Origin: Nitrospirota bacterium
Lineage (GTDB): Bacteria; Nitrospirota; UBA9217
Reading direction: 5' to 3'
Length of the DNA: 17,884 nt
Assembly (NCBI GenBank): GCA_029858565.1
Contig: JAOUEV010000063.1
Location: 1 to 17,884 of the forward strand
The notes under the pieces were generated by a model. It did not search any database and was not told the DNA's origin. It was given only the letters and a program-made list of their open reading frames with translations. Position numbers and translations under genes: made by a program. Below are positions 1,197 to 5,767 of this stretch, in pieces. Numbering within the stretch: position 1 is the first letter of the stretch; every line of letters begins with the position of its first letter.

Positions 1197-2567
1197 ATGA
1201 AAGCAAAAGCAAAGACCGTCTATGTGTGCCAATCCTGCGGCAGCCAGTCGCCCCGGTGGATGGGCAAATGTCCGGACTGCGGCCAGTGGAACACGCTGGT
1301 CGAAGAGCGGATGGAGCGGCAAAAGGATATCGGCGCTGCAAAGAAGGGCCGTAGTTCTGAACCGCTTGCACTGAACGAGATCAAGACCGGCGACGAGGAC
1401 CGTTTCGTCACGAAGATCGGCGAGCTCGACAGGGTGCTGGGCGGCGGGATCGTTGCAGGCTCGGTTGTCCTGGTCGGCGGGGACCCGGGGATCGGCAAAT
1501 CGACCCTGGTGCTCCAGATGCTGCGGCAGGTTGCGGAGCTCCGGGGCAAGGCGCTCTATGTTTCAGGCGAGGAATCGCCGTCCCAGATCAAGATGCGCGC
1601 ACAGCGTTTGGGGGTCAAGGCCGAGAACCTGTACGTGCTTGCCGAGACATCGCTCGATGAGATCACCCGCGCTGCTGACGAGCTCCAGCCCCAGGTCATT
1701 GTTGTTGATTCGATCCAGACGGTCTTTACCTCGGAACTTCCGTCAGCTCCCGGCAGCGTGGGCCAGGTGCGCGAGGTCTCGGGACGTCTCATGCTCTATG
1801 CAAAACGCACGGGCATCCCGACCTTTCTCATCGGCCATGTGACCAAGGACGGCGCGATCGCCGGGCCCCGGGTCTTGGAGCATATTGTGGACACGGTGCT
1901 CTACTTCGAAGGAGACCGGGGCCATGCCTTCCGCATTCTCCGGGCGGTCAAGAACCGCTTTGGGAGCACGAACGAGATCGGCGTGTTCGAGATGAAGGAG
2001 TCCGGTCTTGCCGAGGTTGCCAATCCTTCGGAGCTGTTCCTTGCTGAACGGCCGAAAGACGCCACGGGCTCGGTCGTGGTATCGTCATTGGAAGGATCGC
2101 GGCCGATCCTTGCCGAGCTCCAGGCCCTGGTCACGCCGACCAAAATGACCATGCCGCGCCGCACTTCCATCGGCGTTGACTACAACCGCGTATCACTCCT
2201 GATTGCGGTGCTTGAAAAGCGCGTTGGCATGCACCTCATGGGCATGGACGTGTTCGTGAACATCGTGGGCGGCCTGAAGATCGACGAACCTGCGGTCGAC
2301 CTCGGCGTGATCGCAGCTGTCGCATCGAGTTTCCGCGAGAAGTCGATCGATCCGAACACGGTCGTGATGGGCGAGGTGGGCCTCGCCGGCGAGGTCCGCG
2401 CCATCAGCCAGGCAGAACTGCGCTTGAAAGACGCGGCCAAGCTCGGATTCTCGCGCTGCATCCTACCGATGGTGAACGTTGAGAAGCTTGATAAGGCAGC
2501 GGGCATCGGGAAGATGGAGCTCATCGGTGTCAGGACCGTGGAAGAGGCGATGGAGCGGTTGTTCTAG
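1197..2567 (+). CDS. radA: DNA repair protein RadA/Sms
   Basis: C4 zinc finger (CQSC...CPDC), Walker A GDPGIGKST, KNRFG motif and Lon-like C-terminal domain. Confidence 0.97.
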   Translation: MKAKAKTVYVCQSCGSQSPRWMGKCPDCGQWNTLVEERMERQKDIGAAKKGRSSEPLALNEIKTGDEDRFVTKIGELDRVLGGGIVAGSVVLVGGDPGIGKSTLVLQMLRQVAELRGKALYVSGEESPSQIKMRAQRLGVKAENLYVLAETSLDEITRAADELQPQVIVVDSIQTVFTSELPSAPGSVGQVREVSGRLMLYAKRTGIPTFLIGHVTKDGAIAGPRVLEHIVDTVLYFEGDRGHAFRILRAVKNRFGSTNEIGVFEMKESGLAEVANPSELFLAERPKDATGSVVVSSLEGSRPILAELQALVTPTKMTMPRRTSIGVDYNRVSLLIAVLEKRVGMHLMGMDVFVNIVGGLKIDEPAVDLGVIAAVASSFREKSIDPNTVVMGEVGLAGEVRAISQAELRLKDAAKLGFSRCILPMVNVEKLDKAAGIGKMELIGVRTVEEAMERLF

Positions 2568-2577
2568 GTTTATTATT

Positions 2578-2603
2578 ACCACGGAGGCACGGAGACACAG
2601 AGA
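2578..2603 (+). repeat. Short 8-mer tandem repeat CACGGAGG-CACGGAGA-CACAGAGA
   Basis: Three imperfect 8-nt units at 2580, 2588 and 2596, read directly from the sequence. Confidence 0.7.
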
Positions 2604-2607
2604 AAAT

Positions 2608-3726
2608 ATGGTCAAACAGGTTGCTATAGTTGTGTTTGCGCTTTTAATTTCTTCCTACGGCTTAAGTGCTGCGTATGGAAATGATACATTTGTCTATGAC
2701 AATGGTCGCACGGCTTATCCGATAAATACAGACAAGATACGGATGGCAGAGGAGAAAATTATCGTAATGATGCTTGGCGATGGATTCAGTCGGAAAGCTA
2801 AGGTAACCTGCGATTTTATTTTTGAAAATATTACTGACAAAGAGGTGTCGGCGAAGATCGGCTTTCCTGCGGAGGATCAGTATTACCATGATATCGGTGA
2901 AGGTGAAAAACGCTACCCGCCCCTACGAGATTTTGTGGCTCTTGTCGATGGGAAGAAGACTCAAGTAAATATCCGAACTCAGGAAGATAAGTATCCTGTT
3001 CTTTATTGGTATACATGGGATGTCACGTTTCCACCGTCCCGCCGAATTACCATCCGAAATGTCTACGAAACAGGCCTTTCACTCAGCTATTATAACCAAT
3101 GGTTCACATATATCTTAACAACCGGTGCAAATTGGAAAGGCCCGATCGGGCATTCAGAAGTAGAAGTTGTGTATGACAGCGTGGATGAACTCAGGAAGAG
3201 AGTAAAATCAGCATCGCCTGATAATTTTAAAATATCAGGAAGTAAAATTGTCTGGGATTTCATCAATTTAATTCCCAAAGAAAATATACAAGTTTACGAG
3301 AATAACATGGATCGCGAAGGCTATTTATCAGATCCAACGCACAGGTTATTCGAACGGCTGGCCGATTTTTTTCGCAAAAAAGAATATGTTGGAGGAAAAA
3401 GGGATTACACTGAACAAGATTTGGATATCCGGAAGATTAACGGGATCATGTCTTTCGTTCAGCAGATGAAAAATGAATATGCGGGAAATGTTAAGTCCGG
3501 GGAACAGTTAGTCACTGAAATAAACTTAATGTACCTGAGGTTACTTAGAAACGAGGTGTATGCAAAGCACGGTCGATATTTTGACTCCGAGTACCTCCGG
3601 AAGTTTTTTATGAAGGTCGGAGGCTATAATAGTGGGCCGGAATTTAATGAGGCGTCGCTAAACGCTTACGAAAGGAAGAATGTTGAGAGCATTGCTGCTT
3701 TTGAGGGAAAGCTTAAGAAACATTAA
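2608..3726 (+). CDS. Secreted DUF4424-like N-terminal domain plus C-terminal YARHG domain protein
   Basis: ATG at 2608 begins a signal peptide (MVKQVAIVVFALLISSYGLSAAYG). YILTTGANWKGPIG is a DUF4424-like motif, and LRLLRNEVYAKHGRYF...LNAYERKNV is a YARHG domain. The 2479 start in the track overlaps radA and is unlikely. Confidence 0.8.
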   Translation: MVKQVAIVVFALLISSYGLSAAYGNDTFVYDNGRTAYPINTDKIRMAEEKIIVMMLGDGFSRKAKVTCDFIFENITDKEVSAKIGFPAEDQYYHDIGEGEKRYPPLRDFVALVDGKKTQVNIRTQEDKYPVLYWYTWDVTFPPSRRITIRNVYETGLSLSYYNQWFTYILTTGANWKGPIGHSEVEVVYDSVDELRKRVKSASPDNFKISGSKIVWDFINLIPKENIQVYENNMDREGYLSDPTHRLFERLADFFRKKEYVGGKRDYTEQDLDIRKINGIMSFVQQMKNEYAGNVKSGEQLVTEINLMYLRLLRNEVYAKHGRYFDSEYLRKFFMKVGGYNSGPEFNEASLNAYERKNVESIAAFEGKLKKH

Positions 3727-3865: not shown

Positions 3866-5767
3866 ATGGCTATCGGCAAACTCTGGAACTTCTTCGGCAC
3901 CCGCTTCGGGATGATCATCTTGTCAGCCCAGCTTGTGCTGGTTATTGCCTTCATTTCCCTCTACTCCGGATACCAGTCCAGCGACAAGTGCGTTGCTTGT
4001 CACGCAGATAAAGAGCGGATGACAAAGCTCGGTTCCCCTGAGTTCGTGATGACGCGGGAACAGGTGCAGAAAGAATCGCGCCATCCGAACACCGAGTGCC
4101 GGGACTGCCATCTTGGGAACGGTTTGTCAGAGGATCCCGTAAAAGCGCATAAAGGCATGCTGAAGCTCCTGGTGCTGGACAATGATCTCGACGTTATACC
4201 GCGCAAGGGACTGGTGAAGCAGCTTCTTCCTTCAGGCAATGATCGCCTACGCGCCATGCTGCCACGAGACAGCAGCGGCGAGCTGGTCTACGAGGTCGGG
4301 ACGCTCATGTGGCATGACCGGAACCCGGTCACGCTTGGGTACGATCCTGCTATTGCGGCAAAGACCTGCGGCAAAGCATCGTGCCATCCTGACCAGGTGA
4401 AGCAGTTCGAGACCAGCATGATGGGCTCGAACTTCCGCCAGCGGTCCATGCGGACCTGGAACGATATCCACGGCCCGAATAATTGAGGGCCTTCTTTTGC
4501 AGACACCCTTCCGGTCGGAAGGGCTGAAGGCAACAGGTTCTCCTTCGAGAACACGAGCAGGATCGTTTCCGAGATCAACAGCACGCTCACGCACGACCAG
4601 GCCATTGCCAAGCAAAAGGCCTGCAACCTCTGCCATTCAGGCTGTCTTGATTGCCATTACACGCCCATGTCCGGCAAAGGGTCCCATTCCATGAGCCGCA
4701 TCCCTCCTGCGGTGAACTGCACCAGCGGCGGCAGGAGTACCTTTATCTGCCACGCAGGCACCATGGAGCGCAGGCGCGGGGACAGCTACCTTGGAAAAGA
4801 ATTGGCTGAACCTGCCGGGTTACCCGAGGACGTGCATGTGAAACAGAAGCTCGAATGCGTTGACTGCCACCAGACCGGACCGGACGGCATGGGCCATATC
4901 GAACGCAAAGCGACCTGCCAGGATTGCCACATTGAAGTTGAAGAGGCAATGGCAAAGAGCGCGCACAAGAACCTGGCGTGCGAGGCCTGTCATGTAAAAG
5001 TGCTGGGCGGGTACGAGATGACCTCCTGGGGTGCGGGAACGGTCCTGTCAAAGCCTAATCCTTTTAAGAAGTATTCATTATATTATGGACCCCAGGAGCC
5101 GCCGATCCTGATCAAGGACCAGAAGGGCAGATGGATGCCGGTCAAGATCTGGCCGAACAGCGTGGGTTCTATAAAGGAAGAGATCAAGCCGACAGCGGGG
5201 CTCACCTGGCGCTGGCCTGATGGCGCGACACAGGATGCATACGCGCAGCTCGGGACCTTCAGTTACCCTGGAGGGAACAACAACTACCTTGCCTGGCTCC
5301 AGGTGGAACAGGTGGCCCATCCGCTCGGAAAGTCCCGATCCTGCGAAAGCTGCCACGCTTCGGAGACCCAGACCGCAGAAGTGAACTGGAGGTTCTTCGA
5401 TTCCCAGGGAGCCGAGCCGTTCACCGGCAGACAAAAGGTCGTGGCGGACAGAAAGGGATTGCGCGTCATCGATATCAAGGTAATCTCGAAGATGATGGTC
5501 ATGGAAGGCGGGAATACCAAAGATTTCGCCGCATGGCTTCATCTTGGAGATATCTGGAATACAAAAGGTGATTTCTCCATTCCCAAGGCTGATCAGAAGA
5601 AGTACCGTGACCTTGAAGCGTCACTCCGTGATGCACGGAAGAAAATTGCTATAATGGAGCGAGAGATCAACGCGCGGGAAGCAAAGGGCGAAGATGTCAG
5701 GAAGCTTAAGCGTCAGTGGAAGGAGATGAAGGCTGCGGGGGCGCATGAGTCCCATGTAGGCCTGTGA
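3866..5767 (+). CDS. Membrane-anchored multiheme c-type cytochrome, probable selenoprotein (633 aa, Sec at codon 207, TGA 4484-4486)
   Basis: 3866-4486 and 4667-5767 are in the same frame (offset 801 nt). The gap after TGA is open and encodes GPSFADTLP...CNLCHSGCLDCH. Motifs are CVACH, CRDCH, CNLCH, CLDCH, CVDCH, CQDCH, CEACH and CESCH, plus CX4CH and CX9CH. There is an N-terminal hydrophobic helix and a SECIS-like hairpin just after the TGA. Confidence 0.88.
4487..4531 (+). promoter_or_regulatory. Bacterial SECIS-like stem-loop
   Basis: CCCTTCC (4506-4512), loop GGTC (4513-4516), GGAAGGG (4517-4523), extended by CAG/CTG and GCCTT/AAGGC pairing. The G-initial loop starts 26 nt after the UGA. 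Confidence 0.82.

Follow-up and report, generated by a model that had tools for sequence, protein, structure and literature searches.

The window, a stretch of 17,884 nucleotides (nt) from a Nitrospirota bacterium (contig JAOUEV010000063.1), carries a gene for a multihaem cytochrome c of 633 amino acids on its forward strand, together with a radA-like gene, a DUF4424/YARHG open reading frame (ORF), four tRNA genes and a gene for EF-Tu. The single frame of the multihaem gene is interrupted only once, by a TGA at codon 207, and a short hairpin begins 19 nt after this codon, inside the coding sequence (coordinates are collected in Table 1). We conclude that this hairpin is very probably the apical stem-loop of a bacterial selenocysteine (Sec) insertion sequence (SECIS). 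The element is ordinary in kind, and the interest lies in its host gene.

When the TGA is read through, the multihaem gene encodes a protein with an N-terminal hydrophobic membrane helix, nine haem motifs (eight CXXCH and one CX4CH) and Pfam matches to cytochrome c7 and cytochrome c3. Two invariant haem motifs, CNLCH and CLDCH (codons 253-264), lie between the UGA and an in-frame ATG at 4667, and because this interval contains no in-frame ATG, GTG or TTG, both motifs can be translated only by read-through of the UGA.

In the hairpin, CCCTTCC pairs perfectly with GGAAGGG around a GGTC loop, and 26 nt (4487-4512) separate the UGA from the first loop base, which is position 30 when counted from the UGA; the window thus reads as the first-pass annotation had described it. 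The same annotation held that the hairpin fits the bacterial SECIS model, and it does agree with the four published criteria, as they are set out in part of PMC13188914. These ask for an apical loop of 3-9 nt on an upper stem of 4-16 base pairs (bp), for a G as the first or second loop base or both (most often a G with G or U after it), for a spacing of 16-37 nt between UGA and loop, and for a minimum free energy no higher than −7.5 kcal/mol. The window has a 4-nt loop on a 7-bp stem (orthologues have either 7 bp or two blocks of 3 bp that flank a mismatch), the loop is GGUC (GUC or GGC in a second clade considered below), the spacing is 26 nt, and the predicted energies are −11.2 kcal/mol for the 18-nt hairpin alone (z = −2.21 relative to shuffled sequences) and −26.9 kcal/mol for the 62 nt starting at the UGA (z = −2.79). 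The intermediate stretch 4484-4531 folds no better than shuffles (−18.1 kcal/mol, z = −0.84). As in a functional SECIS, the hairpin directly follows an in-frame UGA, the counterpart of a cysteine (Cys) codon in homologues.

How often such a hairpin follows a TGA by chance was estimated by counting Watson-Crick stems that are 7 bp or longer, with a loop of 3-9 nt, a G in the first two loop positions and a spacing of 16-37. A comparable hairpin follows 1,069 of the 133,288 TGA trinucleotides in the genome (0.80%). One such hairpin is therefore unusual, yet there are about 1,000 genome-wide, so that the hairpin alone proves little and the comparative evidence carries the case.

Cysteine pairing and conservation of the hairpin

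Homologues of the multihaem protein were found in 38 of 61 related genomes, and a scan of one genome per species added 74 loci, nearly all of them labelled as Nitrospirota metagenome-assembled genomes. Together these gave 99 locus rows over the site, which reduce to 83 distinct 180-nt segments. At the codon 207 column, 43 segments have TGA and 40 have a Cys codon (TGC in 29, TGT in 11), so that Cys occupies the UGA position in every non-TGA homologue, within the invariant motif GPNN-[U/C]-GPSF. The TGA orthologues of the window's own clade share 65-77% protein identity and have one in-frame TGA at the same codon, and protein conservation continues across and past it. One of these orthologues (L045; 74% identical, with an identical SECIS) comes from a record labelled Betaproteobacteria; all its neighbors in the tree are Nitrospirota, and the label is probably a binning or labelling issue.

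Public annotations cut the multihaem gene in two. Gene callers treat the TGA as a stop, and Sec forms appear in public protein collections only as separate C-terminal fragments of ~360-430 amino acids, called 'hypothetical' where they are named at all; Cys forms are called 'hypothetical protein', 'cytochrome C' or 'cytochrome c3 family protein'. Taken at face value, this treatment would favor a real stop at codon 207, with two genes or a pseudogene on either side of it and a hairpin that acts in mRNA stability, attenuation or translational coupling. We find this barely credible, however, because the same in-frame TGA recurs in 42 distinct orthologues from many genera with the frame conserved on both sides, and because the two haem motifs upstream of position 4667 have no start codon of their own. 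Nor did we find a U-tract or a terminator-like or promoter-like site at the hairpin.

The hairpin itself follows the TGA. The first-pass annotation had named absence of the hairpin from other TGA-bearing homologues as the observation that would overturn it, and the reverse was found: GCC-GGUC-GG stands at the same columns in 42 of 42 distinct TGA segments of the close clade, and the five TGA forms of the second clade have a hairpin with a different stem. A tree was built from 79 rows after four short ones had been set aside; all 39 Sec rows of the close clade have the motif CCGGTCGG, and none of the 39 Cys rows has it. Within the Sec clade, three Cys forms are nested at separate places with good support (Table 1), and the hairpin has been lost in each; over 66 nt, their folding does not surpass that of shuffled sequences (z = +2.15, +0.50 and +2.06 for L024, L035 and L036, respectively).

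In the second, more distant clade (~47-50% identity), 5 of the 15 loci examined have TGA at the same codon. These TGA forms have a stem of 7-8 bp (CCUCC/GGAGG) closing a 3-nt loop of GUC or GGC that begins at position 30, as in the window. The hairpin is paired in 95% of alignment cells, with two pairs changed on both sides, and in one sequence a compensatory change gives CCCCC/GGGGG. One TGA form comes from a genome in which selB was found. A supported subclade (99/95) unites four of the five with the Cys form L129; in the other Cys forms of this clade the loop is A-rich or the hairpin is missing. The trees are compatible both with two gains of Sec and with an ancestral Sec that was repeatedly lost. 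An independent Sec gain had been considered for one TGA form, L097, and was dropped once the other four TGA forms and L129, with its retained hairpin, had come to light. The second-clade stem derives in part from ordinary Pro-Pro-x-Glu-Val codons, which suggests a route by which coding sequence could be recruited into a SECIS when Cys is replaced by Sec.

Constraint on the RNA and points against a SECIS

Selection on the RNA was assessed in a codon alignment of 42 Sec orthologues, in which 405 columns have a conserved degenerate residue. Mean normalized synonymous entropy over these columns is 0.677, and the lowest 7-codon window of the whole gene lies at codons 214-221 (0.167); all nine of the lowest windows fall inside codons 210-227. 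Thr214 is ACC, Pro216 is CCG and Val217 is GTC in 42 of 42 sequences each. Because the hairpin overlaps codons 214-220 (T-L-P-V-G-R-A), amino acids and synonymous sites are both constrained there.

That the stem lies wholly in coding sequence, where PVGRA is nearly invariant among TGA forms, raises the alternative that the hairpin is a by-product of coding constraint, the codons for P-V-G-R-A happening to be self-complementary and the RNA structure having no function; the partial stem that Pro-Pro-x-Glu-Val codons give in the second clade, even in Cys forms, points the same way. We consider this explanation very unlikely on two grounds. Same-clade Cys orthologues, 65-73% identical, vary PVGRA freely, with PARRA, PRHRA and PTGHA in the three nested Cys forms, and more distant Cys orthologues vary it completely; these drifts imply that PVGRA is needed by the RNA rather than by the protein. 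Further, the frozen third positions at the site of the gene's lowest synonymous entropy cannot be explained by protein constraint. Cys forms that kept PVGRA while varying its synonymous codons would favor coding constraint, and the opposite is seen.

A consensus structure was obtained with RNAalifold. Its apical helix pairs columns 23-25 with 38-40 and columns 27-29 with 34-36 around the GGUC loop, and beneath it lie a lower helix, in which 96.6% of cells are paired with one-sided changes only, and a basal helix, in which 100% of cells are paired but which is near-invariant and hence weak evidence. Over the whole structure (41 distinct rows), 94.8% of cells are paired, and six of the seven apical pairs form in every row. 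At pair 27-36, 39 rows have G-C, one has G-U and one, the window, has U-A, which reflects two synonymous third-position changes (CTT and GGA). This exchange, like those among the paired rows at 26-37, is compensatory and speaks for the stem. The first-pass annotation had drawn other lower stems, CAG/CUG and GCCUU/AAGGC; these are possible in the window but lack conservation across orthologues, since the pairs 18-42, 9-45 and 6-48 are found in 3, 8 and 15 of 41 rows, respectively.

Several observations weigh against the SECIS reading. A scan of positions 4400-4650 against Rfam at E ≤ 10 matched no family. At the fourth stem pair (26-37), 12 of the 41 orthologues have U-A, one has A-U, one has G-C and 27 have a mismatch; the perfect 7-bp stem is thus right for the window but is a minority state, the conserved form being 3 + 3 bp around a 1x1 mismatch. 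Covariation, by which the first-pass annotation proposed to compare TGA and Cys homologues, is thin: only 2 of 16 pairs are changed on both sides (three cells), a level that 10 of 500 shuffles reach, although sparse covariation is expected because the region is 92% identical. That comparison did bear out the association of the hairpin with TGA, with L129 as the exception: this locus (L129:2674-2739, minus strand) has the Cys codon TGT and yet keeps the full CCUCC-GGC-GGAGG hairpin, and it looks like a recent Sec-to-Cys change with a relic SECIS. Because the Pro-Pro-x-Glu-Val codons occur in Cys forms of the second clade too, a hairpin at this site is not by itself proof of function. Folding is mostly unremarkable, in that z-scores of the 62-nt regions average −0.98 for the TGA set and +0.20 for the Cys set and fall below −2 in just 10 of 43 TGA sequences. 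Finally, the 26-nt spacing exceeds by 8 nt that of the fdhA genes of the same genome and of E. coli fdhF (both 18 nt), while remaining within the 16-37 nt of the published model (as given in part of PMC13188914).

Selenocysteine machinery and related elements

The genome encodes a full Sec machinery, with selB (389 bits), selA (604 bits), two selD genes that each contain an in-frame TGA, and one tRNA-Sec gene identified by ARAGORN. The tRNA-Sec and selB genes are on different contigs; part of a 2026 review describes selC as embedded in or overlapping selB in some Nitrospirae. Three formate-dehydrogenase-like genes have one in-frame TGA each. The loops downstream of these TGA codons (Table 1) can be compared with that of the multihaem gene. 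The fdhA elements and the selD element of contig C3 share its closing pairs and loop core (GCC-GGUC(U)-GGC in fdhA, AGGUC in selD), and they differ in having 5-nt loops from position 22-23 rather than a 4-nt loop from position 30. Only 9.3% of the TGA sites in the genome have a GGTC starting at +19 to +33, a range that was chosen after seeing the data. Presumably, one SelB reads the fdhA, selD and multihaem-gene elements. The GGUC-type loops at 18 nt (fdhA) and 26 nt in one genome form a natural test set for the spacing tolerance of SelB.

A blastn comparison of the fdhA region of this genome with E. coli genomes gave no match, and fdhF was taken by position from an E. coli K-12 record (L134:13889-13950, minus strand). 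There it reads GCA-GGUC-UGC with the loop at positions 22-25, so that the likeness to the fdhF loop asserted in the first-pass annotation is correct. Both elements are stem-loops within the ORF directly after the UGA, both have a 4-nt GGUC loop on a G+C-rich closing stem, and both sit within a longer imperfect helix that starts at the UGA. They differ in spacing (18 nt in fdhF, 26 nt in the window), in the upper stem, which in the window has seven perfect pairs (3 + 3 around a 1x1 mismatch in most orthologues), and in their unrelated host genes. The fdhF SECIS has also been described as having a bulged U. Experimentally established as it is, the fdhF SECIS is no more stable than its dinucleotide-shuffled versions (z = +0.70). 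Such z-scores therefore have little power and were given little weight in either direction, and a SECIS candidate should not be rejected on their basis.

In other systems, a structure downstream of a stop codon can promote its read-through, and one might suppose that the UGA of the multihaem gene is read without Sec, for example by a near-cognate Trp- or Cys-tRNA, with the hairpin promoting read-through or pausing independently of SelB. Such an origin is highly improbable given that Cys in every non-TGA homologue forms the classic Sec/Cys pair, that the genome has the full Sec machinery and that the GGUC loop type is common to its own fdhA and to E. coli fdhF. A SECIS thus remains our preferred explanation, and the claim of the first-pass annotation that the hairpin supports recoding is upheld by the Sec/Cys pairing, the tie between hairpin and TGA, the synonymous constraint and the Sec machinery.

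By analogy with the Sec pathway established in bacteria, SelB loaded with GTP and Sec-tRNA(Sec) would bind the G-rich GGUC loop and the upper stem. The ribosome would melt the lower helices, which begin at the UGA, and the tethered SelB would deliver Sec when this codon reaches the A site. Following Sec insertion, translation would run for 426 more codons to the genuine stop. Without the element, the product would be a 206-amino-acid fragment from which six of the nine haem motifs are missing. Recognition of the SECIS would restore a 633-amino-acid enzyme in dozens of Nitrospirota genomes.

Table 1. Positions and descriptions of the features discussed. Positions without a prefix refer to the window; alignment columns are those of the RNAalifold consensus.
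Feature	Position	Strand	Description
Multihaem cytochrome c selenoprotein gene (proposed)	3866..5767	+	633 amino acids; single frame once the TGA is read through
In-frame UGA	4484..4486	+	Codon 207, proposed Sec; motif HGPNN-U-GPSFAD
Peptide spanning proposed Sec207			HGPNN-U-GPSFADTLPVGR
Basal helix, 5′ arm	4485..4488	+	Columns 2-5; includes GA of the UGA; pairs with 4539-4542
Lower helix, 5′ arm	4494..4498	+	Columns 11-15; conserved; pairs with 4526-4530
Apical SECIS hairpin, proposed SelB-binding element	4506..4523	+	Stem 4506-4512/4517-4523; loop GGUC 4513-4516
Lower helix, 3′ arm	4526..4530	+	Columns 43-47; conserved
Basal helix, 3′ arm	4539..4542	+	Columns 56-59
CGKASCH (CX4CH)	4367..4387	+	Codons 168-174
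C285-x9-C295-H296	4718..4753	+	Codons 285-296
Genuine stop of the multihaem gene	5765..5767	+	TGA
radA-like gene	1197..2567		
DUF4424/YARHG ORF	2479..3726		TTG start
tRNA genes (Thr, Tyr, Gly, Thr)	16340..16734		
EF-Tu gene	16674..17882		Listed TTG start at 16674
Cys form L024			Sister to L107; support 99
Cys form L035			Sister to L046; support 92
Cys form L036			With L063 and L065; support 91
fdhA, contig C41	C41:35343-37343		GCC-GGUCU-GGC hairpin; loop from position 22, 18 nt after UGA
fdhA, contig C7	C7:6454-8460		As for contig C41
Formate-dehydrogenase-like gene, contig C24	C24:36982-37425		Loop GGG
selD, contig C3	C3:2376-3290		Loop AGGUC
selD, contig C14	C14:90529-91446		Loop GGC
ExtKL homologue	C2:7507-8826 (L118:201-1520)	-	GGUC at positions 21-24
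selB	C101:16483-18369	-	
tRNA-Sec gene	C73:36057-36155	-	

The host protein and its relation to known selenoproteins

Three haem-related selenoprotein families are named in part of PMC13188914, namely ExtKL (NF040886), GSU2204 (NF041027) and the octahaem cytochromes of the tetrathionate reductase family (TIGR04315). None of these three models matched the 633-amino-acid protein at E ≤ 1. As a positive control, NF040886 scored 581.6 bits against the ExtKL/MccSep homologue of the same genome, which contains five CXXCH motifs and whose in-frame TGA falls within GHSIPDG-U-PTPNR. One organism thus encodes two unrelated multihaem selenoproteins, which suggests that the pairing of Sec with haem c is recurrent and makes the second of them a candidate for biochemistry.

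MccSep/ExtKL of Geobacter is a five-haem selenoprotein polysulfide reductase that is common in Nitrospirota; a 2026 study showed that sulfur respiration requires it, and its Sec acts beside a Cys-ligated haem (from part of PMC13510729). Like it, the 633-amino-acid protein is a multihaem cytochrome c that has a single Sec and relatives of the Cys type. However, the best BLASTP alignment between the two scores 24.6 bits over 16 residues and reflects similarity at the CXXCH level only, and the proteins differ in number of haem motifs (nine versus five in MccSep/ExtKL), length (633 versus ~440 amino acids), position of Sec (207 versus ~325) and the membrane anchor, which belongs to the 633-amino-acid protein. 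The TIGR04315 octahaem family is likewise similar in being a multihaem cytochrome with a Sec form.

Structural comparison placed the protein no more precisely. A search of PDB sequences with the single protein gave no match at E ≤ 1, and the best match with a profile was NrfH (E = 0.0027), a generic CXXCH similarity. An AlphaFold2 model of the 633-amino-acid protein has a mean predicted local distance difference test score of 65.5, with residues 176-224 (around Sec) and 277-356 below 50, too low to describe the surroundings of Sec, and a Foldseek comparison of this model with the PDB gave no match at E ≤ 0.001; the best match was the Shewanella octahaem cytochrome 1sp3, which is weak (E = 0.042, probability 0.20, template modelling score 0.18-0.24) and comes from a low-confidence model. 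Two features of the protein are conserved in 32 of 32 aligned homologues, the unusual CX4CH motif CGKASCH at residue 168 and the invariant C285-x9-C295-H296; these could be non-standard sites of haem attachment or active-site Cys residues.

Our search of the literature on multihaem selenoproteins in Nitrospirota returned the MccSep paper only, and the main texts of BSepDB (PMC13326102) and deep-Sep contain neither 'cytochrome' nor 'heme', although their supplementary family lists may hold the family. The host gene appears to represent an unlisted multihaem selenoprotein family that is mis-annotated across public data. Going further, we lean slightly towards the view that the hairpin marks an undescribed family of membrane-anchored multihaem selenoproteins of ~630 amino acids, with nine canonical or CX4CH haem sites plus the invariant C-x9-CH, that is widespread in uncultured Nitrospirota and unrelated to MccSep/ExtKL, that carries Sec in HGPNN-U-GPSFAD at a haem-linked catalytic site reducing a sulfur, selenium or nitrogen compound, and that uses two SECIS variants with an identical loop start. 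A catalytic redox role of Sec207 next to a haem is plausible by analogy with MccSep.

Elsewhere in the window, the start codons listed for two genes conflict with their neighbors. The four tRNA genes lie directly upstream of the EF-Tu gene, and because the listed TTG start of the latter overlaps the last tRNA, the real start must be later. The DUF4424/YARHG ORF overlaps the radA-like gene by 89 nt, and its true start is probably further downstream.

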